64,000 nt of DNA from assembly GCA_016124195.1 (NCBI GenBank), contig WGOE01000008.1:40682-104681 (forward strand), in the 5' to 3' direction. Numbering within the stretch: the stretch's first letter is position 1; every line of letters starts with the position of its first letter. A program made the position numbers and the translations under genes. Source of the DNA: a bacterium. Lineage in GTDB: Bacteria > Pseudomonadota > Alphaproteobacteria > Rhodobacterales > Rhodobacteraceae. Shown here piece after piece: positions 3,963 to 64,000 of the stretch. The notes beneath the pieces were generated by a model that was not told the origin of the DNA, did no database searches, and was given only the letters and a program-made list of their open reading frames with translations.

Positions 3963-4352
3963 TCGGCCTGCCCAAACCGTGGCCCTGTGAAAGAGGGTAT
4001 AACTTCTGCCATCGGGACGTCGTGCCCGCAGGCCATCCGGCCGGCGCTGAGGCGGCCGGGGCCCCGGCGACGATCGGGGTGCGGCGGCTTCACCACCATA
4101 TCGCCGCAGCCGAAAACCTTTGCCGCGGTCAGAAGACGCCCGACGCCTTGGCCCTGGTGGCGGCGGACACCACGTCCCTTTGGCAGGCCACGGAAACCGA
4201 ACTTCCGAACCTCGGCCTGCTGATCCGACCGGCCTCGCGCAAGCCGGGTGCCGGGCGGCGCCCCAGATGTGCGGGTTGGAAATTGGCGGCAACCTTGAAC
4301 CCGTCGCCAGATCCCGGGCAATTCGGTTCAGCCCTGCTTCCGCACCCGCCGG

Positions 4353-5540
4353 TCAGGCCGGCCCGGCCGAGGTCACGCGGATGCCGTCAGTGACCTGGTC
4401 GCCTGGGTGCAGGATCACCTCCGCGCCGTCCGGCACGCCGTCAAGCACGACCGCAAAGTCGGCATTGCGCTCGCCCAGCGTGATCCGCCTCAGCCGGGCG
4501 CGTCCCTTGTCGACCACGAAGGTCGCCCAATCGACGCCGTCGCGGAACAGCGCCGCCGTTGGAATGGCAAGGACGCCGTCGCCGCGCCAGACCTCGATTG
4601 CGACCAGCACCCGGAAGCCATGGCCAAGGCCGATCCAGCGGCTGGGGCTGGCGGTCAGGCGCAGGATGACCTGTACCCGCTGCTCTTCGATCCCAAGAGC
4701 CGAGACCTGGGTCATCGCCATCGGTTCAACCCGTTCGACGACCGCATCAAGGTCGGGGCCGCCCCATCCGGTGACGTGGGCCGGATCGCCCGGCTTCACC
4801 CGCACCGCGTCGCGCGAAAGAAGCTCCGCGACAATCTCGAGGTTGGCCGGGTCGCCGATCTCGGCGATGGGGGTGCCCGGCTGGACGACCTGCGCATCGT
4901 CGGTCAGCACGCGCAGGACCGTGCCGGAGACCGGCGCCTTGATTTCGATGCAGCAGGTGCCCGTCCCGGAGCTTCCCGATGCGCCCAGCACGGCACGCGC
5001 GCTGTCGAGTTCGCGCTGGCGCAGGTTCAGGTTGGCCTGGGCGCTGTCCAAAGCCGCCTGCGCGGTGCGGCGGCCCAGAAGGGCCTCGTCCAGCGTGCGG
5101 CGCGAGCTTGCGCCGCGATCGAAGATCTGCGTGGCCCGTTCAGCGTCGCTGGCAGCGAAGTCAAGCGCCGCCTGGGCCTGCTCGACCTCGGCGCCAGCCA
5201 GATCGACCGCCGAGATGGCCGCCTCGACCGCCGCCTCGGCGACCGCCCGGGCGCGGGCATCCAGAAGCGCAGGCTCGGTCGGTCCGATGGTGGCGACGAC
5301 CGTCTGATCCGCCGTCACAGGATCGCCGGCGTGAAGGGCCAACCGCTTCAGCTGACCCGTCGTCGTGGCCGAAAGGGTGAAGACTTCGCGGATGCGCGCC
5401 TCGCCTTCCTCGCGCACGGTGACGGCGACCGATTGCGGCCCGATCCGCACCGTCTCGACCGGGATCGGGCGCGGGGCGAAAGCCCAGACAAAAAGGCCAG
5501 CGACGACCAGGACGGCGACGGCGGCGATGAGGCGGCGCAT
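4353..5540 (-). CDS. HlyD/MacA-type periplasmic adaptor (membrane fusion protein)
   Basis: 395 aa with an N-terminal TM anchor, Ala-rich coiled-coil segment (AEAAVEAAISAVDLAGAEVEQAQAALD) and beta-barrel C-terminus. Last gene of the ABC operon, 3 nt after the permease stop. Confidence 0.85.
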   Translation of the reverse strand: MRRLIAAVAVLVVAGLFVWAFAPRPIPVETVRIGPQSVAVTVREEGEARIREVFTLSATTTGQLKRLALHAGDPVTADQTVVATIGPTEPALLDARARAVAEAAVEAAISAVDLAGAEVEQAQAALDFAASDAERATQIFDRGASSRRTLDEALLGRRTAQAALDSAQANLNLRQRELDSARAVLGASGSSGTGTCCIEIKAPVSGTVLRVLTDDAQVVQPGTPIAEIGDPANLEIVAELLSRDAVRVKPGDPAHVTGWGGPDLDAVVERVEPMAMTQVSALGIEEQRVQVILRLTASPSRWIGLGHGFRVLVAIEVWRGDGVLAIPTAALFRDGVDWATFVVDKGRARLRRITLGERNADFAVVLDGVPDGAEVILHPGDQVTDGIRVTSAGPA

Positions 5541-5543
5541 CAG

Positions 5544-7904
5544 CTACTCCCTCGTTTTGAGAACTTCGATCATGTCCAGCCGGTCGAGCCTTCCGCGGAT
5601 CGCCCAGCCTGTCAGGAGGCTTGCAGTCAGAACGACGAGGCTTGCCTGCGCCAGGACCTCGGGGCCAAGCACGAAAGGCACGCGGTAAAGATCAGAGGAA
5701 AAGGCCAGCGTCATCGCCCAGCCGATCGCCGTGCCGATCAACCAGCCCACGGGTTGTGCGATCAGGACCAGCGTCGCCAACTCGCCGAACAGGACCCAGG
5801 CGACCTCGGCGCGGCTGAAGCCGAGGACACGCAGGCTGGCCAGTTCGCGGCCCTGTTCGGACAGCGAGATCCGGGCAAAGTTGTAGACGACGCTCACGGT
5901 GATGATGGCGGCGAGCGAAAGATAAACCGCGTTCATCATGGTGATGTTCTCTGCCAGAGTATCGCGGAAGCGTTTCAGCGTCAGGGCTATGACCGAGACG
6001 AACTGCGTGGCCGGCGCGGTCTTGGCCTCGGCGTAGAACTGGTCGCGCTGCAAGGGATCGAGCGCAAGATTGACGCCCGAGATCTTGTCGCTCTCGCGCA
6101 TCAGGCTGTTCAGCGCGTCAAGGCGCATCGTCGCCGAAAGGCCAACATAACCGATCGAGATGCCGCTGACGGGCAGGACGGCAAGGGGGCGCGTGCCCTC
6201 GGTCACCTCGACCTGGACAAGATCGCCACGGCCGACATGAAGGGCTGCGGCAAGGGCCTCGGACAGGATCAGCCCCTCTTCGGGCAGGGCCATCGGGCGC
6301 AGGTCGGGGTCCAGCACGCGGCTGAGGACGGGCATCGCCGGCTTGCCCATGATCGAAAGACGGCGCGACCAGGGGCCGTTGCCGATGCGGGCCGCGACAG
6401 CGCGGAAGGGTTCCACAGCCAGGACCCCCGGCATCCGCTCGACCGCGAATGCCGCGCCAAGGCTTGCAGGCGCGTCGAAGACGACCGTCGCGTCCTGGCG
6501 CTCGATCCGGAAGAAGCTGATGTCGATCATCCGCTCGATCGACCCGCGCGACCACAGCGAGGCGACCAGCAGCGCCACGGCCATCGACACGCCAAGCATG
6601 CTGGTCAGGCTGCGGAACGGCCAGCGCGTCAGGTGGCGCAGGATCATGACATCGCTTTTGCTTAACCAGCCCGCCGGGCCGGTGCGGTGGCGGTGATAGA
6701 CGGCCGGGGCGGCCGGCGCCATCGCCACCGCCGGCGCAAGCCAGGCCACATTGCGGGCGGACTGCACCGCGCCGGCAACCGCGGCCGCCAGTGCGATGCC
6801 CGCCGCAAGGCCATAGACCCGCAGGTCGCGCGTGAAGATCAGGAACGGGAAGGCAAAGAACCGCGCGTAAAGCTGCGCGAGGCCGGCACCAAGCCAGCTT
6901 CCGGCCACGATGCCGCAGGCGATGCCCAGGACCGCGATCACCACCACGAACTCGACATAATGCAGCGCCAAGGCGCTCGAACTATAGCCCAGCGCCTTCA
7001 TCAGGCCGATCTGCTCGCGTTCAAGGTCGACGAGCCGCGCAAGGGTCATGTTCACCAGCATCGCGGCCACGGCCAGAAAGATCGGCGGCAAAACCCGCGA
7101 CATCGCGGCCAGCTGAGTCAGCTCGGCATCGAGAAAGGCGTTCGACAACTGGTCCTTGCGCAGGATCGCCCTGCCGCCGCCATAGGGCGTCGTCAATTTG
7201 TCAAGCGTGTCCAGAACGCGGTCTGCCGAGGCTCCCGGGGCCAGCTTCACGACCACGCTCGTGATCGCACCGCGCAGGTCGAAGGCCGCCTCAAGCCCGG
7301 GCAGCGGCACCCAGACGATGCCGAAGCGGCGCGGATCGGGCATCATCTCGCCCGGTCCGATGGCATAGATGAACTCGGGCGACAGCGCGATCCCGGTCAC
7401 CACCAGATCGCGCCGGTGCCCGTTCATCAGGACCGGCAGGCGCGCCCCCGGCGCCAGATGATGCGCCGCGGCAAAATCCTGCGAGATGACCGCCTCGTCC
7501 ACGGCCTGCGGGTCGGGCAGTCGGCCCTGCCGCAGGTAAAGCCGGTTCAGCCCGCTGTCGGGCGCGGCAGGCAGGGAAATGAACTGGACCGTCCCCGGCT
7601 CTACCATCTCGGGCATGTCGAGCAGGCCGAGCTTGGCGATCCTGCCCTCGACGGCCAGGACCCCGTCGATCGCGCGGATCTCCTCGACCAGACCGCGCGG
7701 CGCGCGTGTGAGGTCGGCGAAGATGTCGGCGAAACGGTTGGCCTCATAGTAGTGGTCGCGCGTCTGGCGCAGCGATTCCGAGGCGCCGTTGCCCAGGATC
7801 ATGGTCGCGACCCCAGCCGCCAGGACAAGGGCTATGGCGATCACCTGCGCCCAGAGCCGCCGGACATCGCGCAGGACCTTTCGGTGCAAGGGAGAGATCA
7901 CCAT
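5544..7904 (-). CDS. ABC transporter permease with two FtsX-type domains (MacB/YbbP-like)
   Basis: 786 aa with two repeated blocks of TM helices separated by large extracytoplasmic segments. Its start overlaps the ATPase stop by 7 nt. Confidence 0.85.
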
Positions 7905-8614
7905 GTCACCTCCGATGGCGCCTTGCGACGCGCGTTCACCGTCTCGAGCGCGATGCGGCCATCGGCGAAGCGGACCACGCGATGTGCTGTCTCGCTGATG
8001 GCGACGTTATGGGTGATGATCAGCGTGGTCGCACCTATCGCCTCGTTGACCTGGGCAAGCGCCTCGAGCACGCGGATGCCCGTGGCGGAGTCGAGCGCGC
8101 CGGTCGGTTCGTCGCATAGAAGGACTTCGGGGTTCTTCGCGATGGCCCGTGCGATGGCGACCCGCTGCTGCTCGCCGCCCGACAGCTGCGCGGGAAAATG
8201 GTCGCGCCGGTCCGACAGGCCGACCAGATCGAGCGCCGCATCGGCCTTCATCGGGCGGCGGGCAATCTCGGTCACCAGCTGCACGTTTTCCAGTGCGGTC
8301 AGGCTGGGGACGAGGTTGTAGAATTGAAAGACGAAGCCGACATGATCGCGACGATAGCGGGTCAGTCCGGCCTCGTTCAGGCGCGACAGGTCCTGGTCCT
8401 GAAACCAGACCTCGCCCGAGCTGGGCGAGTCCAGCCCACCCACGATGTTGAGGAATGTCGACTTGCCAGAGCCGGAGGGGCCAAGGATCACCACGAATTC
8501 GCCCGATCGCGCCTCGAAGTCGACGCCGCGCAACGCCTCGACGGTCAAAGGGCCGACGCGGTAGACCTTTTTCAGGCCGCGTGTCCGGAAAACTACGCCG
8601 CGCAAGTCTGCCAT
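7898..8614 (-). CDS. ABC transporter ATP-binding protein (LolD/MacB-ATPase type)
   Basis: Walker [10 protein letters not shown], signature [14 protein letters not shown], Walker [12 protein letters not shown]. Start chosen at ATG 8614 (MADLRGV...) because AGGAAGGGG lies 7 nt upstream; the track start at 8668 is possible. Confidence 0.9.
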
Positions 8615-9293
8615 CGCATCGCCCCTTCCTGCGCCTGAACTATGGGCCCCGGAGCCGAATCGCTTCAATGACCTGTGTCAAGCCAGCCCGGCAACGCGAG
8701 ACGGGGCGGTCAGACGACCGGGCCGCTCAGGATCGCGCGCGCCAGATCGCCTGGATCGGTCAGCGAAACCAGGCGCGCCACGCTGTCCGTCGATGGCTGC
8801 GAGTTCCTTCCACCCGATCTGTTCGTGAGCCATGGTCCGGACTCCCGTCGTGCCGTTTTCCGCAACGCCCGGGATGGATTTGCCCTTTGCAGGTCTGGCG
8901 CATCATTCCGCAAATCGATTTCCAAGATCGGAAAGGGCGGACTGGGCGCTGCGGGATCAGTGCCCTTGGCCCCTGGGCAACTGGGGCTTCGGGCGCCCGG
9001 CCGTCACAAGCTCGGCGCTGATCCGGTTCCGTCTCTGGACCAAACCGATCGACCAAGAGGATCCCGAAACGCAGATTTGCGAAGTGGGGCATGTCGCCGA
9101 GGGCCCCGCCGGGTCGTGACCGAGCCGCCATGCCGGCCGTGGGCAACAGACCGCCCAAAGTCTGCGAACGCGGATGAAAGATGTTGTCGAGGATGATCGC
9201 TGGATGAAAAGTGCTGTCGTACTCGCGGTCATTTGGTATATCTGTGTACTGAGCACGGCAGGGCCGTTCAGGCCGGAGAACCTCAGGACGCGC

Positions 9294-10247
9294 ATGAAAA
9301 TACTCGCTATCGATGACGAGCCCTATATCCTGGAGTTGATCCCCATGCTGGCCAGGGTCGTGGGGTTTCCCGATGTGACTACAGCGGACTCGGGCATGCA
9401 AGCGCTTGAGATCATTGAAGCCTCTGATGTGCCCTTTGACTGCCTGATCCTCGACATCAACATGCCCGGGATGGACGGGATCGAATTGTGCCGGTGCATT
9501 CGTCAGATCGAGACTTACCGCCGGACGCCGATCATCATGCTGACAGCGATGTCCGAACGCGACTTCGTGGACGAGGCATTCCGCGCCGGCGCGACGGACT
9601 ATGTCACCAAGCCCTTTGACATCAAGGAACTGGCTGCGCGGTTGCGCGTGGCCCAGGAACTCGTCGCCGCACGGGCGGAGGCGGCCGCGGCCCGGATCCT
9701 GGCGGCAGCGCCCATGCCAGCCGGGCGCCGCGATCTGGCCGAACCCCTGGTCATCCCGGGTGCTGCGAATATCTCGGACCTGACCGCGTTGTCGAACTAC
9801 CTGCGCCAGTTGTCCCGCGCGGGCCTGTCCGTGTGTCAGGTGATGGCGGTCATGGTCAATCGCATCGGCGAGATCCATGCCCGGGCCAGCGAGGCGGAAT
9901 TCCTGTTCGCCCTGTCCGAGGTCGCCACCGCAATCGAAACCGCCCTGCTGACGCATATCGGGCTGATGGCCTATGCCGGCAACGGCGTCTTCGTCATCGT
10001 CTCTACCGCGGCCAGCCCGCTGGATCCTGTCGAAGTGGAATCGGACGTGCAGGAAGTTCTGGACACCCGCGATGCAGAGTTTGACGACGGCAGCCCCATG
10101 GACCTTGAGGTCTCGGTCGGCAGCCCTGTCCTGCCGACGAACGGCGGCAACGCGGATTTCGACCGGGCCATCGCGCGGGCTGCAACACGGTCGTCCTCTG
10201 GCGCAAAACGCGCCCCGGTTCGCCGCTTTCGCCAACCGCTGAACTGA
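9294..10247 (+). CDS. response regulator: REC domain plus degenerate GGDEF-like domain
   Basis: MKILAIDDEPYILE...DCLILDINMPGMDG...TKPF is a receiver domain. The C-terminal half aligns by eye to a GGDEF fold, but the signature is AGNGVF and the DxD metal site is absent. In-frame upstream starts at 9174/9204 would add one TM-like helix (SAVVLAVIWYICVLSTAG). Confidence 0.8.
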   Translation: MKILAIDDEPYILELIPMLARVVGFPDVTTADSGMQALEIIEASDVPFDCLILDINMPGMDGIELCRCIRQIETYRRTPIIMLTAMSERDFVDEAFRAGATDYVTKPFDIKELAARLRVAQELVAARAEAAAARILAAAPMPAGRRDLAEPLVIPGAANISDLTALSNYLRQLSRAGLSVCQVMAVMVNRIGEIHARASEAEFLFALSEVATAIETALLTHIGLMAYAGNGVFVIVSTAASPLDPVEVESDVQEVLDTRDAEFDDGSPMDLEVSVGSPVLPTNGGNADFDRAIARAATRSSSGAKRAPVRRFRQPLN

Positions 10248-47057: not shown

Positions 47058-49051
47058 TGCCCGGCCTCCGGCGCGAAAAAGAACTCGTCCGGGCGCAGCA
47101 CGCCGAACTGGGCGCCGGGTTCCCAGGCCCAGATCGCGGTGTCCGGCACGTTGCGCAACTTGCGCGAGACGACAACGGGCTGCGGCGCGCCGTTGAGGAT
47201 GCCGATGCCATAGACCTGATCGGCATGGATCGCCAACATGTCGCGCCAGATGCGGGTGCGTTCCTCATCAGTCGTGGCCTTGTCCCAGTCGCGGGCAAGA
47301 TCCAAGAGGCGGCGCGGCTGGATCATGTCGACAGGCTCGCCCGCCGCCCCGTTGGTCTGGAAATATTGGCCCCATTTCGGCCAGGCGAAGAATTCCTGCT
47401 GTTCGGGCGCGAGATAGGCCGGCGAGGTCTGCGGCGTCGGGATGCCGTCGTCCCAGCCGTACCAGACGGCCGCCATCGTCTGGCCCGCATCGACGCGGTT
47501 ATACAGCGTGTCGCGGTCCAGCGGGCGCATGATCAGCTGCACGCCGATGTCGCGCCAGGTGTCCACGATGATCTGCAAGGCACTTTCGACCTCGTCCCGT
47601 TCACCCGAAGTCTCGACGATCAGGCGCAGCGGGCGGCCATCGGGCAAGAGGCGGTAGCCGTCGCTGGAACGGGCCGTCAGGCCCATCTGATCCAGCAGCG
47701 CATTGGCCTGCACCGGGTCATAATCGGCCCAGGCCCTGCGGAGCCTGTCGTCATAGAACGGGCTTTTCGGCAGGACTGTCATGGCCCCCTCGGTCGCCAT
47801 CCCGAAATAGAGCGTGCGGTTGATGATGCGCCGGTCGATGGCCAGCGACAGGGCCCGCCGGAACCGCACGTCGCGCAGGACCTTGCGCCAGACCGGATCG
47901 GCATAGTTCAGGTTGGGATAGATCGCGATCTGCGAAGCCGCACCGCTTTGCCACAGAAGGGTGCGGTAGTTGCCGTTGTCCAACTCGCCCTGCTTGAGGA
48001 TCGAGACATCCTTGAAATCAAGCCCGCGCGCCTGCAGATCGGCCTCGCCCGCATTGGCCTTGGCCGCGATCAGCCCGCCGCCGGCCACGGTCATTTCGAC
48101 CTCGTCGATATAGGGCAGCTGAGTGCCCGTCGAATCGATGCGGTGGTAATAGGGGTTGCGCACGAAGGTGCGGCGCGACTTGCCCCCGGCGGCGGTGTTG
48201 ACCCAGGGCTGCAAGGTCGGCTCGTCGGGATTGTCGAACTTGTACATGTTGTCGAGCGCATTGTGCAGTGCCGCCCAGCTGCGCACCTTGTGATCGGCAA
48301 TCGCCTGCGCCATCGAGGCGACGGGCGTGAAATCCGCGTTGAACTGTTTGAGGTAATGCGCCGGCCGGTAGATGAAGGGCGGGCTGGCCATCGCGAGTTC
48401 GGGCAAAAAGCGCGGGTTGGGCCTGGACCAGGCGTAGATCACCGTTTCGGCGTCGGGAAAGCTGACCTTGGGCAATTCGCCATCCACCCGCAGAAAATCG
48501 GGCGGGCCCGAGGGGGTCAGATCGGCATTGTTGGCGACATGGTCCCACCAGTATTCGAAATCCTCCGAGGTGAAGGGCACGCCGTCCGACCAGCGATGCC
48601 CGCGCCGCAGATGGAAGGTGAAGATGCGTCCTTCGACCACGTCCACGCTTTTGAGGATGTCGGGCTGCAGGGTGTAGTTCTGGTCATAGCCGACAAGCCG
48701 CGCATAGCCGAAGGGCACCATCTGCCGCACGTCCTTGATCTGGCCGATCATGGTGTGCAGCGTGCCGCCCTGAACTCCGGTCTCGCGCCCCTTGGCCGCA
48801 AGGTCCACCACAAGGGGGTCCAGCGGAATGCGCGCGGCGGCGGGCGGCAGTTTGCCCTTGGCGACGGCATCGGCGAAGTAGGCGCTTTCCTTGACGGCGG
48901 GAACGGTCTGGGTCTGGGTCGGGGCTGGGGTCGCCGTCTGGGTCGCCGTCTGGGTCGCGGTCTGGGTCGCCGTCTGGCTTTCGGTCTGGGCCGGGGCCGG
49001 CGCGGTCAACTCCCCCGTGACGGCCAAGGCCAGAACCACAAGCCTAAACAT
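47054..49051 (-). CDS. ABC transporter substrate-binding protein (family 5, peptide/nickel type)
   Basis: Start ATG 49051 ([11 protein letters not shown]..., signal peptide), followed by a (TQTA)n linker and a ~600-aa SBP_bac_5-like body. The 713-aa track version is an extension. Confidence 0.9.
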   Translation of the reverse strand: MFRLVVLALAVTGELTAPAPAQTESQTATQTATQTATQTATPAPTQTQTVPAVKESAYFADAVAKGKLPPAAARIPLDPLVVDLAAKGRETGVQGGTLHTMIGQIKDVRQMVPFGYARLVGYDQNYTLQPDILKSVDVVEGRIFTFHLRRGHRWSDGVPFTSEDFEYWWDHVANNADLTPSGPPDFLRVDGELPKVSFPDAETVIYAWSRPNPRFLPELAMASPPFIYRPAHYLKQFNADFTPVASMAQAIADHKVRSWAALHNALDNMYKFDNPDEPTLQPWVNTAAGGKSRRTFVRNPYYHRIDSTGTQLPYIDEVEMTVAGGGLIAAKANAGEADLQARGLDFKDVSILKQGELDNGNYRTLLWQSGAASQIAIYPNLNYADPVWRKVLRDVRFRRALSLAIDRRIINRTLYFGMATEGAMTVLPKSPFYDDRLRRAWADYDPVQANALLDQMGLTARSSDGYRLLPDGRPLRLIVETSGERDEVESALQIIVDTWRDIGVQLIMRPLDRDTLYNRVDAGQTMAAVWYGWDDGIPTPQTSPAYLAPEQQEFFAWPKWGQYFQTNGAAGEPVDMIQPRRLLDLARDWDKATTDEERTRIWRDMLAIHADQVYGIGILNGAPQPVVVSRKLRNVPDTAIWAWEPGAQFGVLRPDEFFFAPEAGQ
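48930..48989. repeat. 12-bp tandem repeat (about 5 units) inside the SBP gene
   Basis: GTCGCCGTCTGG at 48930, 48942 and 48966, GTCGCGGTCTGG at 48954, and a degenerate unit at 48978. Encodes TQTATQTATQTATQTA just after the signal peptide. Confidence 0.85.
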
Positions 49052-57707: not shown

Positions 57708-57763
57708 GAGCGCCTGTGTAACTCAAGGCCGGGAAAGCGTCCAGTTCCGATGCCAATTTGCTC

Positions 57764-57792
57764 TTGCGCCTTTCCGGGTTTGCGTCTAATCA
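57764..57792 (+). promoter_or_regulatory. candidate sigma-70 promoter upstream of the tRNA-Thr fragment
   Basis: TTGCGC (57764-69), exactly 17 nt, TAATCA (57787-92). Lies about 44 nt upstream of the tRNA-like 5' end at 57836. Confidence 0.35.
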
Positions 57793-57835
57793 CCCGCCAC
57801 GCCAGCAAGGATCGCAACCCGATGCCGGCCCCGGC

Positions 57836-57882
<47 letters not shown>

Positions 57883-58014
57883 TTTGCAGTGATTATTGTT
57901 TGAAGTGAAGTGGTTACGGGTTAGGAAGTTTTGCTGGGGGTGCGAGTGGGGGAGCGGTGCTTTCCGGCCCCTTGCAAGGAAAAAGCCGGGGCTGTAAACC
58001 CCGGCCAGTTGTAG

Positions 58015-58067
<53 letters not shown>

Positions 58068-58089
<22 letters not shown>

Positions 58090-58358
58090 TCACTCACATC
58101 ACGCAGTTTCCGCATATTGTTTCGATACGCTGTATCGTCGCGTCGCATGTGGTCGATCAGTGGCCACATTATATTTGAGATGAATCTGAGGTTTGCAGTC
58201 AGGTCCGGGTGCAAGTCCGCCAAATAGTCCTTACTTTTGGCCAGATTGACACCCTTCTGGACTTTGTGTTGAACCCCGTACATCGCCAGAGTAGCCTCCC
58301 AAACGAGGTCGAGAATTTTCTCAGATTTCGCAATTTGGCGTTTCGTTGGTTTCTTCAT
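58068..58358 (-). CDS. hypothetical protein (96 aa, Lys-rich)
   Basis: AT-richer ORF MKKPTKRQIAKSEKILDL.... Its last 7 codons and stop lie antisense inside the tRNA 3' end (58068-58089). Confidence 0.5.
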
Positions 58359-58476
58359 CGGTCTGGCCCTCCTTGGCCCAAGGGGTGCAGCGTGATTGCC
58401 GCGACCTCATGGGCCAGTGGTGCCATCGGATGCCCCATCATGATACGAGGGCTAGACCGCTAAAAAGCCAGCCCGA

Positions 58477-58842
58477 CTAAAGGAAAGCGTTCCTGTACCG
58501 CTTGCGGATCGCCTTAGCATCCTCCATCAACTGCAACCGATAGCGATCCTCGTCGGTCAGCTCACCGGCTGGCTGGGCAGGTTCATCGCCCAAATGGGGC
58601 GCGGTGGGCGCGGGTGAGCTGCCGCGATGCTGGTTCAGACGAATCAGCCCCGTGTTGCGGTCGAGGCGCAGGCGCTTGTCGCCCTTCTTGTGGCGGGCAT
58701 ACCAGATATTGGCGACCACCTTCTTGCGGTCGAGGCCAATCAGCTCTGCGACCTCTTGAGTGGTGCGTGGGCCGGTAGAGACAGCGGCGATGATCGCCGC
58801 TGTCTCTGTCGCGAATTGGTTTCGGTCAGTATAGCCGTTCAA
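58477..58842 (-). CDS. hypothetical protein with wHTH-like segment
   Basis: TTQEVAELIGLDRKKVVANIWYARHKK looks like a helix-turn-helix. A TTG start at 58842 overlaps the upstream stop (TTGA). The longest ORF would start at 58893. Confidence 0.45.
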   Translation of the reverse strand: MNGYTDRNQFATETAAIIAAVSTGPRTTQEVAELIGLDRKKVVANIWYARHKKGDKRLRLDRNTGLIRLNQHRGSSPAPTAPHLGDEPAQPAGELTDEDRYRLQLMEDAKAIRKRYRNAFL

Positions 58843-58985
58843 GGAAGAACCCCCAGGATCAGGATCAGCAGGGCCGGGGCGAGGTGAACCCACAGCAGAA
58901 CGCGCAGGACGCGGCGCAGTAGCCGCCTCTTTGGCTTGGGCGGGGTGTTAGCCTCCGGCAGGTGGATGACGTTGCTCTGGGTCAT
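58839..58985 (-). CDS. small membrane protein (48 aa)
   Basis: MTQSNVIHLPEANTPPKPKRRLLRRVLRVLLWVHLAPALLILILGVLP has a basic stretch followed by one TM helix. ATGA overlap with the upstream ORF. Confidence 0.4.
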   Translation of the reverse strand: MTQSNVIHLPEANTPPKPKRRLLRRVLRVLLWVHLAPALLILILGVLP

Positions 58986-59188
58986 TCGGCAGGCACCTTC
59001 TGGGCTTTGCGGGTCAACCGCTGCACCAGCGCCTCGAAGTCGGCAGAGGCGAAGTGGTAGCGGTGGACGCGCATGTCTGGGGTTAGGACGAGGACCGGCA
59101 GAGGCGGGGGCTTTGCTGCCCAAGGGGAGGCGGGGCGCGGGATGGTGGAGCGGTGGCTGTTGGTGACGCGGCGGGGGATGACCTTCAT
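58982..59188 (-). CDS. hypothetical protein (68 aa, Pro-rich)
   Basis: ATG 59188 with AGAGG 7 nt upstream. The longer 113-aa version in the track has no better support. Confidence 0.35.
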   Translation of the reverse strand: MKVIPRRVTNSHRSTIPRPASPWAAKPPPLPVLVLTPDMRVHRYHFASADFEALVQRLTRKAQKVPAE

Positions 59189-59269
59189 GGATGACCTCTG
59201 AGTTGTGTTCTGCATCTGTTCTGAGGTCTTCGGCAGGCTGGGGAGCAGGGCAACAAGAAATGGCAGGCC

Positions 59270-59291
59270 GGGGATGATGGAGAGCATCCCC
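59270..59291 (-). terminator. hairpin downstream of the 277-aa gene
   Basis: GGGGATG (59270-76) pairs with CATCCCC (59285-91) around an 8-nt loop. Only a weak T-rich tail on the minus strand. Confidence 0.3.
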
Positions 59292-59342
59292 GACCCTAAG
59301 ACGCGATGGTGGTCAGCCTCCACCCCGCACCTATTCTGTGCA

Positions 59343-60176
59343 TCAGGGCTTTTTCAGCTTCTGCAGATTGCTCAGCGTCTTTTTGGCCTGCGATTTGGCG
59401 TTCATGCGCATGCTGGCGGCGATCTCGTTGCGCTTGCCGATCTGGTGCTGCCAAGCGGCCAGAATGCCCTCAATCTCATTGACCATCACCGAATGCTGCG
59501 CATCAAAGCCAGCGGAGTAGCGCTTTGCGGCTTCACGACGCAGAAGATCGAAGGATGCAGCATCAAGGCCGGTCAGGTATGCCGGTTTCGACAACACCGC
59601 CTGCACAAGCTGCTGGTCGTTGCCGTCGTTCATCTGCTGCCGGATGAAGCCCAGCCGTTCCATGGGCTTTGAGAAGTTGCCCAAAAGGAAAGCGCGCAGC
59701 TCGGCCTGATCCGCATGGGGCTTGGCACCCCGGAACACATCGTCGGAAATCTTCTTGCACAGCAGCGACGTGGTGCCTTCAAAGTTCTTGCGGACATGGA
59801 CGAAACTCGACTGCACATCTTTGACAAGTTCATCGGATGTGTCGGCGTATTCGTCATAGATGGTGCTGTAGACTTTTAGCCGACCATTCAGCATCCGCAG
59901 GTCACCGAAAAACTCGTCGGGGCCGTTGGTGTTCTGGCGGCGGCGGGCTTGGTTGATGTTCTCTTTGTCAAACTCGCCCAAGTCGGTTAGCGCCGACCCC
60001 AGCGCGTGAAAAACCGTAGCGGTGTTGCTCAGCTCGCGCTGCAGCATCGCATAGAACGGCTGGCCGGGGGTATCCGGCACGTCAAGGTGATCTGCGAACC
60101 GGCCCAGCGCTTTGGGGTGCAGGGTCGGGCTGACGTGCTGGCTAACGTCGGTGTTCGGATCGAAGGGCATGGTCAA
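59343..60176 (-). CDS. hypothetical protein (277 aa), orphan
   Basis: Clean ORF with lower GC than the host genes and an ATGA overlap with the terL stop. No catalytic or structural motif recognised. Confidence 0.65.
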   Translation of the reverse strand: MTMPFDPNTDVSQHVSPTLHPKALGRFADHLDVPDTPGQPFYAMLQRELSNTATVFHALGSALTDLGEFDKENINQARRRQNTNGPDEFFGDLRMLNGRLKVYSTIYDEYADTSDELVKDVQSSFVHVRKNFEGTTSLLCKKISDDVFRGAKPHADQAELRAFLLGNFSKPMERLGFIRQQMNDGNDQQLVQAVLSKPAYLTGLDAASFDLLRREAAKRYSAGFDAQHSVMVNEIEGILAAWQHQIGKRNEIAASMRMNAKSQAKKTLSNLQKLKKP

Positions 60177-61573
60177 TAATCTCCTATGGTGCGGCCAGTT
60201 TTGCCGATTGCGGTTTTGAAGTGCCGGATGCCGTACCCGGCAGCGTCCAGCGCGTGGTCCTCAGACCAGCGGTGGTCGAGGTCTTCGGGGTTCAGCGGCC
60301 CGCGTGGGGCTTCGGGCAAGGTGGTGGCGAGGTAGCGACAGGCCGGGGTCAGGTAGAGGCCGGGGCCATCGCCGGTCACAGCGCAGGACAAGAGCTGGCG
60401 CATCAGTGCCCAAGTGCCGCGCCGGTCCTTGCGGAAAGGCTTGGTGGCTGGCACCCCTGCCTCGCGCAAAAGCTGGATCACGGTTTCGGATTGCAGCCCT
60501 TTGGCATCATCCTGGACCACTTGCGGGCAATTGCGCAGACCGTTGCGCTTGGCCATTTCCTTGATCATATCCGCCCAAGCGACAGGCGGCGCTCCGGTGC
60601 CGACCGACAGGTCGTCCCAGCTTGCCAGCGTCGAGGTTTCGTCAAGCGCGATGATGGTGCCCACCGGAAGGCGGAAGCCTTGCGGATGGGACGGGGTGAA
60701 ATAGCTGATCGGGTTGCGCAACTGCCCAAAGAGGATCGCCACCGATGGGCTTGCCGTTCCCCAGTCCGCGCCGATGACATAGCGGTAGTTCGCGCGCATC
60801 GCAGGCGGGGCCACGGGCAGCATGTGGGTGGCCGGGTCGTAGGCGTCGAACATGTTGCCGCCGAAGCTGGTCCACGTCCCGGCCAGCCATGCGTCCAGCA
60901 GCGCCGTGTTGCCATCGGTCGAGGCCCGAAGCTGGGCCGCGTATTGGTCGCGGTCGAGGTGTGGGTTCTGTTGCAGGTTAGAGCTGACCCAGACCCAGAG
61001 CTGGCCGTGTTCGTCGGTCCACGGCACCCACGGCGCGGATCGGTTCACGAAGGTCTTGAGAACCTTGCTGTGGCTTTTGCCACCGGGGTTTCCAGTGATA
61101 TGCACATGGGCGCGGCGACCGGGTGGCACCCGAAGGTTGGATCGAGACCGCATCATGAAAGCCCAAGCGGTCGGGCTGTAGTTGCCTGCCTCGTCGGCGT
61201 AGAGTGCGGTGAAAGTCCGCCCCTGCAGCTTGGCGTAGGACGCCTCATCCCCGATGTTGGTAAACTGGATCACCGCCCCGTTCGGGCAGGTCAGCGTCAT
61301 GTCCGATTTGTTGCGCTGCACCGAACCGAATGCGGCGATGCACAGCTCGTAGGCTTCGTTGAACAGCTCCAACAGGCCCGCGTGGCTTTCGCGCATGACG
61401 AGCGGGCGAGCGGTCGCGGCGAAGTCGGATGTGTGCGACAGCACGTCAAAGAGCAAGCTGACAGACTTGCCCGACCCGCGACCGCCAAGGTTGGCGATGT
61501 TGCACGTTCCCCGGAACGCCAGCACGGCTTTCTGGAAGTCGGTCGGTTCGATGGTGGTATCGGATACAAGCAT
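60173..61573 (-). CDS. phage terminase large subunit (PBSX/Terminase_3-6-like)
   Basis: 466 aa. Walker A GGRGSGKS, Walker B ALYADEAG, and a C-terminal nuclease-like half. Confidence 0.85.
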   Translation of the reverse strand: MLVSDTTIEPTDFQKAVLAFRGTCNIANLGGRGSGKSVSLLFDVLSHTSDFAATARPLVMRESHAGLLELFNEAYELCIAAFGSVQRNKSDMTLTCPNGAVIQFTNIGDEASYAKLQGRTFTALYADEAGNYSPTAWAFMMRSRSNLRVPPGRRAHVHITGNPGGKSHSKVLKTFVNRSAPWVPWTDEHGQLWVWVSSNLQQNPHLDRDQYAAQLRASTDGNTALLDAWLAGTWTSFGGNMFDAYDPATHMLPVAPPAMRANYRYVIGADWGTASPSVAILFGQLRNPISYFTPSHPQGFRLPVGTIIALDETSTLASWDDLSVGTGAPPVAWADMIKEMAKRNGLRNCPQVVQDDAKGLQSETVIQLLREAGVPATKPFRKDRRGTWALMRQLLSCAVTGDGPGLYLTPACRYLATTLPEAPRGPLNPEDLDHRWSEDHALDAAGYGIRHFKTAIGKTGRTIGDY

Positions 61574-61576
61574 TGG

Positions 61577-61852
61577 TCAGCCTCGCGGGTCCGGCCCAAG
61601 GTAGAGAGGCCAAGGGTAGTCGGCGGGGATATCCTCTGGCTCGATCAGCGGGTGGTTGTTGGCGAGGGTCGGGGAACCGTCTGCGTCGGTGCCACCGGTG
61701 AATTTCGCGGTGCCACGGATCAGGAACCGACCGGTCAGTTCTTCACCTGTGGCAGCGTTCCGCCCGATTGAGAGCAAGTGGAAGGTGCCCATGTCGCCGG
61801 GGGCGAACAGGTAGGGGTCGTCGTTCTCGTCAAGCTGGACTTGGAAGGTCAT
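61577..61852 (-). CDS. hypothetical protein (91 aa)
   Basis: Sits between the TerS-like and TerL genes. ATGA overlap with the upstream gene; ends 3 nt before terL. Confidence 0.5.
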   Translation of the reverse strand: MTFQVQLDENDDPYLFAPGDMGTFHLLSIGRNAATGEELTGRFLIRGTAKFTGGTDADGSPTLANNHPLIEPEDIPADYPWPLYLGPDPRG

Positions 61853-62346
61853 ACGAACAGAGCCTTTCGGTTGGCCGGTCGCCCAAAGGGTGCGGGTTCA
61901 GGCGTTGCTGGCTGGGGGGTGATGTCGCGCATCGCAGCGGTGAGCTTTGCCAGCTCGTCGGCGGTGGCAGCGGGCGGGATGAGGATGTTGACTGTTCGCT
62001 GGTCGGGCGCGGCGACAGGGGTGTTCTCGCGGTAGCCGTGGGCTGACTTCAGAAGGAACATGGCGGCGGGCGCGTAGCCGTCGCGGGCTTGCTGCATCAG
62101 CAGGCCGACCAACTCGTCGTGCATGGCGGCGTTGCCCTCACCATAGGCGTCAGCCAGTGCCTCGTCGCGCTCCAGCACATCCTTGAAGGTCGAAGCAGGC
62201 ATGCCGAGTGCGGCGGCGATGGACGCCTTGGCGCAGCCATTGGCCCGCATAGAGCGCACCATCGGATAGGCGTCGGCGTGTACGGTCCATGCCCCGCTCT
62301 TGCCACGGGCCTTGGTCGCGAAGGGGATGATGGTTTTCTTGCTCAT
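61849..62346 (-). CDS. terminase small subunit-like HTH protein
   Basis: Start ATG 62346 (MSKKTIIPF). HTH CAKASIAAALGMPASTFKDVLERDEAL, then AAMFLLKSAHGYRE, which resembles the conserved C-terminal motif of small terminases. Positioned directly upstream of terL. Confidence 0.55.
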   Translation of the reverse strand: MSKKTIIPFATKARGKSGAWTVHADAYPMVRSMRANGCAKASIAAALGMPASTFKDVLERDEALADAYGEGNAAMHDELVGLLMQQARDGYAPAAMFLLKSAHGYRENTPVAAPDQRTVNILIPPAATADELAKLTAAMRDITPQPATPEPAPFGRPANRKALFV

Positions 62347-62493
62347 GGGACTGTCATGTCCCGGTTCACCACAGCTGAAAACGAGGGCTAAACCGTCAGT
62401 TTCGGGCTTGGCGCACCCCAGTAGAATGCCCAGTGGTAGTGGTGCAGGGAATATGCCTGCAAACATGGGGCGAGTTGTGGTGGGGCTTACCCT

Positions 62494-62526
62494 TAGAAAG
62501 AAAAGGCCCCACCAAAGCGGGGCCTT
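62494..62526 (-). terminator. intrinsic terminator (minus strand) closing the noncoding block
   Basis: Minus strand reads AAGGCCCC-GCTTTGGT-GGGGCCTT followed by TTCTTTCT. Confidence 0.6.
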
Positions 62527-62535
62527 CTCAATGCG

Positions 62536-63022
62536 CGACTACGACTAGCAGAACCCCCGTCCTGCAGGTTGTAGGATAGGTGCCGGGGTGGTGGCGGACA
62601 ATCAACAACGCCTCAGAATAGGTCCGTTTCGGTCCTTTTTGAGAGGTCCGCCGGCTGGAGGACGTGAAAGTTTACTGTTTCACTTAGGAATACCCCGATT
62701 TGGCCCTACACTTCCCCCTCGCTGGTGGCACCCCCTCCCACAAGCCCAAGGGGGTTGCGGTTTCCGCGTGCATTTACAGGCGCTTACTCACCACACCTCC
62801 CTACACTCCCTTCTTTTAGTAACAGAGAAGAAGAGTAGAGGACCGACCCCTACCCCCTTGGGCCTACCTCTACTACCTCTATAGAGGAACCGCCCAGTGG
62901 CGGGGGGTTGGGGAGGTGCCGACCCGTAACCCGTTGTTCCCGCACACAAACGAGAGGCCCAAGGGGAGGTGTGCGGGGCGATGGGGTGGAAGTGGCAGGC
63001 AGGTGTTCCGCCCGAAACCGCC
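62536..63022 (-). other. repeat-rich noncoding block: candidate replication origin or structured RNA
   Basis: No ORF of 60 aa or more on the gene strand. Contains GGTCC x3, CCCTACACT x2, GCCCAAGGGG x3 (one inverted), the palindrome CCTCTATAGAGG, AT-richer patches, and two 10-11-nt long-range complementarities. Confidence 0.4.
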
Positions 63023-64000
63023 TTAAAACGGGATTTCCGCGTCCGGGATTTGTGGCTGCACGACGATCATGGTCCCGTCTTTGGTCCGCGCAATGTCAAG
63101 CTCGCACCCGCGCTGCACCTGATCGCCCCGCACATAGCACCATTGCTGCGACCCGTTGTGCCGGAGCTGTTTGCGCTCCCAGCCCAGCGCTTTCGCCGCT
63201 TGGCCGATCAGCGTCATGTGGTGCTGGGTCTTCGGCACCCCAAACAGGTCGTAGCACAGGCCGACTGGCAAGCGGCCATAGGCCGACCCCAGCTTCTGCG
63301 CAAACACCCCGTCTAGCGGGTTCTCCTCTTGGCGAGACGCCTGTTCGGTGGCTGCAGCGCCCCACAGGCTACGGTCCAGCCGGATAGCTTCCCCAGCGGC
63401 TTCTGCCACACACGCCTCGGCCCAAAACTGGTCCCGATGCTGGGCAATGCCATCAAGATTGATAACCCCGCACAGCACCGGCCAATAGCGGCGGTTGCCG
63501 GTTGGGTCTTTGAGATACTTGTCGCCATTGGTGGTTCCGACCACGACAAATTCTCGGTCTTTGTGCATTGTCATCCGGCCATATGCCATGCGGCCTTCGT
63601 CAAAGCAGCGCGACAGCATGGATTTAAGGTGCTCGGCATTCTTGTTGCTTTGGCCGACCATCTCGGCGGCTTCTACGATCCATTTGCCTGCGGTGGCCTC
63701 AATCACACGCTTGCCATCAGCGCCCAAAGGCAGGTCGTCGGAGAACCAATCGGGGTTGACCGCCAGCGTTCGCAGCAGTGTCGATTTACCCCCACCTTGC
63801 GCTCCTTCCAGCACCACCATTTCGTCAAACTTTGCGCCGGGGGTTCGGATGCGCCGAACAGCGGCGACCAACAGCAGGCGACCGACCGCGCGGGCATATG
63901 GGCTATCGGCCACCCCGCAAAAGTCGATCAGCCAGCGCCCAAGGCGAGGCACCCCGTCCCAGTGCAGGCTATCCAGATAATCAGCGACCGGGTGAAAACG
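63023..64000 (-). CDS. VapE/VirE-family primase-helicase-like protein (C-terminal part; ORF continues past the right edge)
   Basis: P-loop LEGAQGGGKST and Walker-B-like block FVVVGTTN. The frame stays open upstream of the track start (GTG 63952), reading FHPVADYLDSLHWDGVPRLGRWL up to position 64000. Confidence 0.85.
   Translation of the reverse strand, partial: RFHPVADYLDSLHWDGVPRLGRWLIDFCGVADSPYARAVGRLLLVAAVRRIRTPGAKFDEMVVLEGAQGGGKSTLLRTLAVNPDWFSDDLPLGADGKRVIEATAGKWIVEAAEMVGQSNKNAEHLKSMLSRCFDEGRMAYGRMTMHKDREFVVVGTTNGDKYLKDPTGNRRYWPVLCGVINLDGIAQHRDQFWAEACVAEAAGEAIRLDRSLWGAAATEQASRQEENPLDGVFAQKLGSAYGRLPVGLCYDLFGVPKTQHHMTLIGQAAKALGWERKQLRHNGSQQWCYVRGDQVQRGCELDIARTKDGTMIVVQPQIPDAEIPF

Follow-up and report, generated by a model that had tools for sequence, protein, structure and literature searches.

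A phage-satellite-like element at tRNA-Thr that encodes both terminase subunits and no detected virion genes

The window analysed here, a stretch of 64,000 nucleotides, ends inside a mobile element: the region that begins at tRNA-Thr makes up two-thirds, on the tRNA side, of an integrative element that is intact, ~9.6 kb long and bounded on both sides by att sequence. We consider it probable that this element represents a separate family of phage-satellite-like islands, apparently not described before, with helper-dependent packaging. The first-pass annotation had already seen the logic of a helper-dependent satellite here, and this view is supported by extension of the contig, by HMM searches and by relatives, while the dependence on a helper is something we infer. 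Most likely, the element would spread by loading its own DNA into the heads of another phage.

Boundaries and gene content

A public contig (L001) is 100% identical to positions 58032-64000 of the window and continues for 3.6 kb past its edge, where it supplies the remainder of the primase gene, an AlpA/HTH_17 regulator, a 201-aa ORF, a P4-type integrase and an att copy. Since it reaches both the integrase and this far att copy, the element is bounded and ~9.6 kb long. The att repeat abutting the element is the 3' part of tRNA-Thr, at about 58045-58089, and the 30-nt stretch 58045-58074 recurs with 27 of 30 positions matching at the far end of the element (L001 1-30), the copy corresponding to the segment of tRNA-Thr from T-arm to anticodon loop. 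Because the contig ends within the far copy, which is also inexact, the left boundary is not seen to the base. An integrase, a regulator and a second copy of the tRNA 3' segment, which the first-pass annotation had suggested looking for past position 64000, are thus all there, the last in imperfect form. What is more, the added sequence holds no portal, capsid or tail genes, so that the reading as an ordinary prophage, which such genes beyond the window would have favoured, fails; a complete temperate prophage is ruled out, as head, tail and lysis modules are absent between the att sites. As for a circular form, neither terminal overlap nor circular permutation was found in any contig, none was concatemeric and only integrated copies were seen, and the predicted attP junction was sought in IMG/VR and not found.

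Table 1. Features of the element, in window positions except where contig L001 is named.
Feature	Position	Strand	Evidence or remark
tRNA-Thr(GGT), integration target	58015..58089	+	ARAGORN; Rfam tRNA 72.7 bits
96-aa ORF, cargo region	58068..58358	-	gene call on L001 9282-9572
121-138-aa ORF, cargo region	58477..58893	-	ORF list and L001 gene calls
Two overlapping small ORFs, cargo region	58839..59323	-	~48 aa and 101-113 aa
Protein X, 275-277 aa, directly downstream of terL	59343..60176	-	
TerL, large terminase, 466 aa	60173..61573	-	Terminase_6N 8e-6; phrog_2 2e-22
91-aa ORF between terS and terL	61577..61852	-	
TerS, 165 aa from conserved start, N-terminal HTH	61849..62346	-	205-aa alternative from 62466
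Non-coding spacer between primase gene and terS, ~0.55 kb	62347..63022 (62467-63022 with the longer terS start)		
Primase-helicase, C-terminal part in window	63023..64000	-	VapE-like_dom 2.6e-67; phrog_256 1.5e-70; full protein 745 aa, L001 2380-4617, ending at window-equivalent position 65260
AlpA-like regulator	L001 2057-2296		HTH_17/Phage_AlpA
201-aa ORF	L001, between integrase and alpA		
P4-type tyrosine integrase	L001 192-1391		Arm-DNA-bind_3 and Phage_integrase

As first described, the tRNA gene stands beside a one-strand array, all credible genes at 58068-64000 lying on the minus strand (Table 1). The shift to AT-richer DNA past the tRNA is patchy: it holds for 57750-58750 and 59250-60250, where the GC content is 0.54-0.59, but not over terL, at 0.63-0.65 against 0.64-0.69 in host DNA. 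The VapE domain confirms the type of primase-helicase proposed at the window edge, and the full protein joins it to a RepB_primase-like N-terminus. The block after this gene, earlier called repeat-rich and non-coding, is indeed non-coding and has three copies of the 10-mer GCCCAAGGGG, short inverted repeats and a terminator-like hairpin at 62495-62529, but its repeats are modest. The 10-mer occurs twice more elsewhere in the element and nowhere in the rest of the window; its count of 5 compares with 0.52 expected and was reached in none of 100 shuffles. Several relatives carry element-specific 9-mers of their own, in 3-5 copies, at the same position after the primase gene. Judging from position and repeats, the spacer is probably the origin of replication, and possibly also a pac site or a regulated promoter.

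The identification of TerL is upheld by several lines of evidence that agree, namely the Walker motifs (Walker A GGRGSGKS, Walker B LYADE), the Terminase_6N and phrog_2 matches, and a match of the family profile to the large terminase of PDB entry 5oe8 at 6e-7. Both the ATPase and the nuclease domain are present. Among 48 TerL homologs, G30, G31, R32, K36, E128, D270, D355, D356, H440 and D443 are invariant and D127 nearly so; in other words, none of these sequences departs from the others in Walker A/B, the nuclease aspartates or the HxxD motif, and TerL is full-length with intact catalytic residues. The TerS-like HTH protein, likewise, matches phrog_309 (1.4e-5 for the 165-aa form, 2.3e-5 for the 205-aa form), as do 14 of 19 TerS members of the family, the best at 3e-17. 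Two ORFs that had been taken for orphans are conserved in relatives. The first is the 91-aa ORF between terS and terL, which found no match in family profile searches; its homologs, 44-62% identical, occupy the same position in the closest subclade (L002, L087, L091, L099). The second is the ORF directly downstream of terL, which we call X.

Wherever the sequence of a related locus extends far enough, a homolog of X stands directly 3' of terL, and 34 representatives were found in a library of 1.8 billion proteins. Between the same elements, X is 13-22% identical as against 44-60% for TerL, i.e. it evolves far faster. X has no Pfam or PHROG match; its AF2 model (pLDDT 91.4, pTM 0.83) is elongated and all-alpha with one beta-hairpin, and a search of PDB and BFVD for its fold gave no significant match. 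Since the model is all-alpha, X as an HK97-fold capsid protein is ruled out at the level of the prediction. The gene occupies the place where phages encode the portal. Judged by its distribution, X is a family-specific core gene, and we propose that it is a helper-interaction factor acting on capsid, portal or terminase.

Searches of all ORFs against Pfam, PHROG and NCBIfam, the first two of which had been advised at the outset, revealed no portal, capsid, tail or lysis genes in the 9.6-kb element. Neither is there room for them: the 2083 bp from terL to the tRNA boundary contain, as had been argued, no ORF for a portal, capsid or tail protein, X being the largest ORF there and the only unannotated one of more than 200 aa downstream of terL, and the 9.6 kb leave no coding space for a head module. 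The remaining cargo ORFs are small. The 96-aa ORF, whose last 22 nt overlap the 3' end of tRNA-Thr, has no match in Pfam, PHROG, PADLOC or NCBIfam, and family profile searches found none for the 121-138-aa ORF or for the two overlapping ORFs, the ~48-aa one of which has a predicted hydrophobic C-terminus.

A family of related islands

The layout of integrase, alpA, primase, repeats, terS, terL, X, cargo and tRNA was found in ~45 loci of Alphaproteobacteria and Planctomycetota MAGs (synteny loci: genomes L087-L109; L002 and L005; 28 metagenome loci; L139 and L140), the relatives being MAGs or metagenome contigs throughout. IMG/VR holds four of them (L007, L008, L011, L017). In the direction of transcription, the order is att, integrase, a variable ORF, an AlpA-like regulator/excisionase, primase-helicase, spacer, TerS, TerL, X, cargo and the att in the tRNA gene, with a small ORF after TerS in some members only and with the replication module exchanged between members (VapE, D5_N/DUF5906 or AAA_25). 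In 11 elements of 10.0-12.0 kb, flanking direct repeats of 35-63 bp derive from different tRNA genes; insertions in relatives are at tRNA-Thr, Pro, Arg, Ser and Gly, and tRNA-Lys adjoins planctomycete variants. The comparison of presence and absence across relatives, by which a fixed remnant was to be recognised, thus reveals a mobile family at several tRNA genes with intact att. The cargo of relatives includes MT-A70+BglII, other methylases, Vsr, ThsB_TIR (a Thoeris-type TIR) and RT-Protease_XI (a reverse transcriptase), restriction-modification genes being part of it, and of the 26 PHROG families that 25 cargo proteins matched, the 25 listed include none for head or tail.

In total, 116 TerL homologs were found. 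The nearest true-phage TerLs are 25-33% identical and adjoin portals, and those of cultured phages are at most 27% identical to the family TerL. In particular, the IMG/VR contigs with TerL 30-33% identical belong to genuine phages: genes for a portal and a major head protein stand beside terL, and X is absent from them. Taken together, the loci make up a distinct, widespread and apparently undescribed family of phage-satellite-like islands.

Comparison with known satellites

The closest likeness is to Gram-negative PICI (EcCICFT073-type; PMC10085698), which share with the element a size of ~10 kb, att repeats, a terminal integrase, a regulator of AlpA type, a primase-replicase with a putative origin that bears repeats behind it, terS, a slot for accessory or defence cargo, and the lack of capsid, tail and lysis genes. 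At 9.6 kb, with att sites and a terminal integrase, the element falls within the 8-15 kb of PICI; it has the regulator and the primase-replicase, an origin as far as repeats indicate one, and terS (phrog_309). However, PICI lack terL, while the element carries a full-length terL beside terS, which places it outside their definition, and terL presence is what separates cfPICI from PICI in SatelliteFinder (PMC10085698). Homologs of PICI capsid-morphogenesis proteins and of Rpp/Ppi were not detected in the family, which has X instead, and its hosts, Alphaproteobacteria and Planctomycetota, differ from those of the PICI compared. With cfPICI, the element has in common the front half of integrase, alpA and primase as well as the encoding of both TerS and TerL, so that packaging specificity and motor would be self-supplied. 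Unlike the element, cfPICI also encode a major capsid protein, a portal, a protease and a head-tail adaptor/connector of their own and borrow tails only; since the element has none of these, whole procapsids including the portal would have to be borrowed. The best reading, then, is that the element sits between PICI (terS only) and cfPICI (terL and a full head module).

VEIME and PICMI, as far as the available portions of their descriptions go, are likewise small and integrative; they occur in environmental bacteria, Alphaproteobacteria among them, and have integrase, AlpA and primase/helicase and no capsid genes. The accessible VEIME text mentions terS homologs, carried by some, and "motor-like ATPases" only, lists TerL among the genes presumably supplied by the helper, and describes packaging as concatemers in full-size helper heads (PMC9618062), a mode that by analogy is plausible for the element too. 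PICMI are without terS (PMC10803314). The judgement that TerS and TerL without capsid genes are uncommon among described satellites agrees with this literature, to the extent that it is accessible. VEIMEs are recognised by their recovery as concatemers from purified virus particles, whereas the present family is known here from its sequences. Finally, P4 resembles the element in its P4-type integrase (Arm-DNA-bind_3) at a tRNA 3' end, its AlpA-like regulator, its large primase-helicase and, presumably on the element's side, its dependence on helper heads. No Pfam or PHROG match to sid, psu, delta or epsilon was found in the element, and P4 relies on the terminase of its helper, acting at a cos site common to both, while the element encodes its own TerS and TerL.

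Proposed packaging strategy and its implications

How would such an element spread? The integrase, whose gene and att repeats are observed, would together with AlpA excise it from the 3' end of tRNA-Thr, and the primase-helicase would replicate it from the adjacent repeat cluster, as position and element-specific repeats suggest. Its own TerS would then recognise a site on the satellite DNA, and its own TerL would cut this DNA and pump it into procapsids. As the element is without portal, capsid, protease, tail and lysis genes, these would have to be supplied by a helper phage in the same cell. TerL has to dock on a portal, and X most likely contacts helper parts, whether by docking to the helper portal, by a change in capsid size or by blocking the helper terminase. 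In relatives, finally, the cargo slot carries anti-phage systems, which is also the case in other satellites.

Three other explanations have to be weighed. An unlikely one is that the island is devoted to defence, TerS, TerL and X serving mainly to sabotage packaging by an incoming phage, whether through competition for procapsids or through cleavage of phage DNA. Defence systems fill the cargo slot of relatives, the rapid divergence of X relative to TerL fits an arms race, and known satellites disturb helper packaging, according to the available part of PMC11417361. However, the module always comes together with an integrase, AlpA, a replicon of its own and att sites, and it has reached many tRNA sites in two phyla, which speaks for horizontal transfer as part of its biology; moreover, interference and transfer can coexist in known satellites.

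Less probable still is a mobile element independent of phage heads, in which a terminase-like ATPase-nuclease would process the element's own DNA, or which would travel in vesicles, in a gene transfer agent or by means of a capsid protein hidden among the unannotated ORFs. Several ORFs, X among them, have no family or fold match, and many hosts belong to alphaproteobacterial orders known to carry gene transfer agents. VEIME-like elements, in turn, have also been seen in vesicle fractions (available text of PMC9618062). Against this, X is all-helical in its model, without a capsid fold. TerS/TerL pairs are, to our knowledge, known solely as motors filling portal-bearing HK97-type procapsids; RcGTA-type heads hold ~4 kb, which 9.6-12 kb exceeds; and Planctomycetota are among the hosts, from which we know of no gene transfer agents.

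Least probable of all, and in our view very improbable, is a decayed prophage, once a complete temperate phage, from which the genes for head, tail and lysis have gone, leaving integrase, replication and terminase stranded at the tRNA: some copies are decaying (L003/L093 keeps only the terS 3' end and terL-X, terL of L110 is truncated N-terminally, and the L090 integrase gene is frameshifted), and the window copy may itself be inactive, but the compact layout of 10-12 kb with intact ORFs and att at many tRNA genes in two phyla, the absence of virion-gene fragments from any member examined, the invariant TerL catalytic residues and the restriction of X to the family, away from related true phages, all speak against it, since copies that decayed independently would not all arrive at a single architecture.

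We return to the helper-dependent satellite. One may go further, tentatively and with more doubt than confidence, and regard the family as phylum-spanning "packaging-autonomous" satellites, in which a terminase holoenzyme and a novel-fold adaptor, X, would let a foreign TerL dock on or remodel portal-bearing procapsids of the helper, as an evolutionary intermediate between terS-only PICI and cfPICI. On this view, the interaction between TerL and portal would be open to hijack in trans. Outside cfPICI, which have a portal of their own, we know of no experimental precedent for the TerL of a satellite acting on a portal that is not its own.

Described satellites either borrow the helper TerL (P4, PICI, PLE, VEIME) or pair TerL with their own portal and capsid (cfPICI). 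If our reading is true, an island with a whole terminase and no head would bridge both strategies and would raise the question of how a satellite TerL engages a helper portal, with X as a candidate new hijacking factor. Satellite biology would also reach Alphaproteobacteria and Planctomycetota, where few or none have been characterised. TerL and X form a simple marker pair for finding such islands in genomes, and because it carries defence cargo, the family is a likely vehicle for anti-phage systems in marine and soil bacteria.

Extent and gene content of the island at tRNA-Thr

The DNA upstream of the tRNA-Thr gene is ordinary host sequence of high GC, with murA and a DUF2948 gene among its genes, and downstream of the tRNA all credible ORFs lie on the minus strand. 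Over the cargo and X (the family-specific product encoded just downstream of terL), the GC content drops to 0.54-0.59, and over terL it is maintained at 0.63-0.65. The first-pass annotation had described this locus as a satellite-like element with a replication module, TerS and TerL and no virion genes, and its description proved accurate, apart from small corrections. A 516-aa plus-strand ORF opposite terL (60221-61771) has no family support and is most probably a spurious antisense reading frame of the kind that high GC produces. In the host DNA, and unrelated to the element, there is a tandem repeat with a 12-nt period, GTCTGGGTCGCC, in approximately 5.5 copies (48911-48997).

The exact TerL protein is also encoded on a public 9,608-bp Logan contig, L001, whose positions 3640-9608 are 100% identical to window positions 64000-58032, and this contig therefore provides 3.6 kb absent from the window (see the table). 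The second att copy, which the first-pass annotation had proposed looking for beyond the window, lies at the very start of L001, where, at 27/30 positions, GGATTGAACTCTCGACCTCTCCCTTACCAA agrees with the complementary strand of the tRNA-Thr segment from T-arm to anticodon loop. The contig end cuts this far copy short by its outermost 15 nt, and the adjoining host DNA likewise lies beyond the sequence. The element thus spans from 58090 to approximately window-equivalent position 67,650, i.e. roughly 9.6 kb, within which there are no portal, capsid, protease, tail or lysis genes and no room left for one. Identical TerL and X are encoded on an NCBI contig of 146,880 bp as well, under locus tags GC209_13935 and GC209_13940. 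At the tRNA end, a 96-aa ORF, the last one before the tRNA, runs 22 nt (58068-58089) into the tRNA-Thr gene, antisense to it, meaning that the stop codon of this ORF comes from the att/tRNA sequence. The small cargo ORFs, the 91-aa ORF and the 201-aa ORF had no match in PADLOC, Pfam, PHROG or NCBIfam, no database record was found for the 205-aa form of TerS, and the tRNA was the sole RNA family returned by an Rfam search of the element. A scan for promoters and terminators performed no better than on shuffled sequences.

Features of the element, with window positions unless another contig is named
Feature	Position	Strand	Size and matches
tRNA-Thr(GGT)	58015-58089	+	sole tRNA within the 64-kb window
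Small ORFs between X and tRNA-Thr		-	three or four
X	59343-60176	-	275-277 aa
TerL	60173-61573	-	Terminase_6N 8e-6, phrog_2 2e-22, TIGR01547 1.4e-8
91-aa ORF	61577-61852	-	91 aa
TerS-like HTH protein	61849-62346 or 61849-62466	-	phrog_309
Primase-terS spacer, non-coding	62347 or 62467-63022		0.55-0.68 kb
VapE-type primase-helicase, C-terminal part	63023-64000	-	324 codons; VapE-like_dom 2.6e-67, phrog_256 1.5e-70
Primase, N-terminal portion	L001 extra 3.6 kb		745 aa in full; RepB_primase-like + VapE
HTH_17/Phage_AlpA protein	L001 extra 3.6 kb		79 aa
ORF	L001 extra 3.6 kb		201 aa; no matches
Tyrosine integrase			399 aa, in the extra 3.6 kb of L001; P4-type arm-binding domain; Arm-DNA-bind_3, Phage_int_M, Phage_integrase
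10-mer GCCCAAGGGG	58376, 59118, 62744, 62854 (minus strand), 62957		five copies
Cargo stretches in relatives	L110 2611-3836; L005 14034-15753; L139 8085-10605

A family of islands sharing a terminase lineage and protein X

A word-indexed search returned 116 TerL homologs at E <= 1e-5, many of them on contigs of approximately 9.4-11.7 kb. Their context was drawn from direct look-ups, 23 loci in GTDB species genomes, 28 metagenome loci and IMG/VR contigs. The GTDB loci were found with a 17-sequence TerL alignment, a single-sequence scan of the same contigs having given none and a 48-sequence alignment being too diverse for search patterns. When mapped by local BLAST and HMMs, a single architecture was seen throughout: integrase, variable ORF, alpA/HTH_17, primase/helicase, spacer of approximately 0.5 kb, terS, in some cases a small ORF, terL, X, variable cargo and tRNA. 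By record title, and with every host record being a MAG, the hosts are alphaproteobacterial (Sulfitobacter, Litoreibacter, Paracoccaceae, Rhodobacteraceae, Algihabitans, Sphingobium, Novosphingobium, Hyphomicrobiaceae, Hyphomonadaceae) and also belong to Planctomycetota (Pirellulales, Phycisphaerae). In 11 loci, the element, 10.0-12.0 kb in size, is bounded by 35-63-bp direct repeats derived from the adjoining tRNA gene, be it tRNA-Thr(GGT), Thr(TGT), Pro, Arg, Ser or Gly. At two loci, the adjoining tRNA (L099 14046-14122, L102 15253-15326) lies on the same strand as the element genes and the direct repeat covers the 5' half of the tRNA rather than its 3' half, an unusual integration geometry.

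In the planctomycete variants, the integrase is located at the other end and is inverted, and the primase-terS-terL-X core is retained, with TerL approximately 50% identical between these members (L096, L098, L123 and L124) and the alphaproteobacterial ones, which implies spread across phyla. In the same four loci, a tRNA-Lys lies upstream of the primase. Decayed copies exist as well, namely terS'-terL-X in L003/L093 (9582-12070) and terL'-X in L110 (619-2585), truncated in terS and terL, respectively. Both adjoin murA/DUF2948, the same host neighbourhood as that of the window copy, suggesting that this site has been occupied repeatedly, with decay of the copies. Genes for a type I restriction-modification system and a resolvase are found in L003 at the expected place of the integrase and primase. 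Could the elements be ordinary prophages? We reject this explanation. A layout that recurs across the family, together with att bounds, is also not the outcome one would expect if prophages had decayed independently. What we describe is a widespread, coherent family rather than one odd locus, and its marker pair is the TerL clade plus X.

Across 48 TerL sequences, the Walker A residues G30, G31, R32, G33, S34 and K36, the Walker B residues D127 and E128, the N162-P163 motif and the nuclease residues D270 (in a GxDWG context), D355-D356, H440 and D443 are invariant or nearly so, and the family profile matches the solved large terminases 5oe8 and 5oea. The D...D...HxxD arrangement corresponds to that of the catalytic residues known from the nuclease domain of SPP1 G2P. 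For TerS, the single-sequence match is weak and the family solid, with phrog_309 found in 14/19 members (best 3e-17). Judging by these motifs and profiles, the packaging genes look functional. In a comparison with 50,697 phage genomes, TerL has its best counterparts in Roseobacter phage CRP-9, Pelagibacter phage HTVC115P, the PaMx11 group and Rhodobacter phages, at only 25-27% identity. Three IMG/VR contigs whose TerL is 30-33% identical (L009, L010 and L015) are ordinary phages with a phrog_145 portal gene (approximately 1e-97) after terL and, in L009 and L015, a major head protein. All contigs and loci with TerL above approximately 35-41% identity have the satellite-type layout. Since the family has its own TerL lineage and the phage-type layout appears at 30-33% identity, the terminase seems to have been long resident in the element family rather than freshly captured.

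A homolog of X follows terL in every locus with at least approximately 0.7 kb of downstream sequence, and none was found in the phage-type loci. Word-indexed protein searches gave two to four homologs, while an exhaustive HMMER search gave 34 representatives. X diverges rapidly, being 13-22% identical to the window protein against 44-60% for TerL of the same family members, and conserves the motifs ExR and D..T..AVL..P.YLSGL. With a 35-sequence alignment, its AlphaFold2 model reached a pLDDT of 91.4 (55.9 before) and a pTM of 0.83, and consists of long helices (38-73, 106-147 and 222-275), short helices and one beta-hairpin (92-103). A Foldseek search of PDB and BFVD with this model gave no significant match, so X is neither an HK97 capsid protein nor a portal, and a small capsid protein was rejected as well. 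The top PDB matches were ClyA/AhlC/XaxB-type helical pore-forming toxins, which likewise have long helices and a beta-tongue; being non-significant, they are not taken as evidence for a ClyA-type toxin. From its place in what is the portal slot of phages, its strict linkage to terL and its rapid divergence, we infer that X contacts components of a helper phage, its possible roles being those of an adaptor for the portal, a scaffold that determines size or an inhibitor of the terminase.

Putative origin, cargo and the search for excised forms

Across the 64-kb window there are five copies of the 10-mer GCCCAAGGGG (0.52 expected), every one of them within the element: three lie in the primase-terS spacer, one in the small-ORF region and one 27 nt upstream of the 96-aa ORF. 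The spacer also contains short inverted repeats around 62830-62870, and in the same spacer five relatives (L005, L091, L099, L094 and L008) carry their own, differing 9-mers in 3-5 copies each. An iteron origin, such as that of PICI, is usually recognised by repeats next to the end of the replicase gene that keep their position and differ in sequence between elements, and on this analogy the spacer is a putative origin of replication. That said, the repeats may instead serve as a pac site or operator, and the two copies outside the spacer point equally to an operator bound by a regulator that the element encodes. Past 0.5 kb of non-coding DNA and immediately 5' of terS lies a GC-rich hairpin with a T-run behind it (62495-62529, minus strand), which could be a terminator between the replication and packaging operons; it is not among the results of the generic terminator scan.

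The slot between X and the tRNA, which in the window copy holds only small unannotated ORFs, carries in relatives MT-A70 and BglII restriction-modification pairs, N6/N4 and C5 methylases (one with Vsr), a ThsB-type TIR protein, and RVT_1 or RT-Protease_XI reverse transcriptases with HTH or trypsin-like partners. The matched families listed (25/26) for 25 cargo proteins of relatives include no PHROG for heads or tails. The replication gene, too, is swapped among members, being VapE, D5_N/DUF5906 or AAA_25. A defence hotspot and modular replicons are typical of phage satellites.

As for excised forms, none of the approximately 10-kb contigs has a terminal overlap, and the predicted attP junction, ...GTGATGTGAGTGA/TGGTGCTGCAGGGGAGGATTGAACTC/TCGACCTCTCCCTTACCAAAAAGAAGC..., was not found in IMG/VR; neither a helper nor a circular or encapsidated form was detected. 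L001 and L139, two independent Logan contigs, consist of precisely one element apiece, with both ends falling within the att repeats derived from the tRNA. Such breaks are the expected outcome of assembly at repeats and are not counted here as excision, and the same ends would also fit samples in which occupied, empty or excised forms were mixed.

Relation to known phage satellites

In its anatomy the element is a phage satellite, and the earlier interpretation as such holds. The sequences show its boundaries and gene content, family-wide conservation, intact catalytic motifs and mobility across tRNA sites, and all functional steps, including excision, origin function of the spacer, packaging into helper capsids and the role of X, are inferred from MAG and metagenome sequence. 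The element would integrate, replicate, and cut and pump its own DNA, with head, tail and lysis functions lying beyond its own genes, and helper-dependent transduction would be the most economical mechanism. The TerS-TerL holoenzyme of the element would pick satellite DNA and fill the procapsids of a co-resident phage, with the DNA going in as single copies where the heads are reduced in size, or as concatemers where they are of full size, the latter as reported in the accounts of VEIMEs (PMC9618062) and PICMI (PMC10803314).

How does such an element compare with known satellites? It matches all structural criteria of PICI save one, as it carries terL, which in the SatelliteFinder scheme (PMC10085698) is a marker that separates cfPICI from PICI. 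It is not a cfPICI, since it has no capsid, portal, protease or connector gene. Unlike P4, it lacks sid, psu and delta. VEIMEs resemble it in ecology and minimalism, but, as far as the main text of their description goes (PMC9618062), only terS homologs and 'motor-like ATPases' are mentioned, with TerL expected from the helper. No island with the order int-alpA-primase-terS-terL and lacking head genes is described in the full-text literature searched, and such a description may exist elsewhere. With terL present, head genes absent and no prior description found, we class the element as a phage satellite that brings its own complete terminase. The helper-dependent satellite is already known as a concept, and a complete terminase without head genes is the variant represented here.
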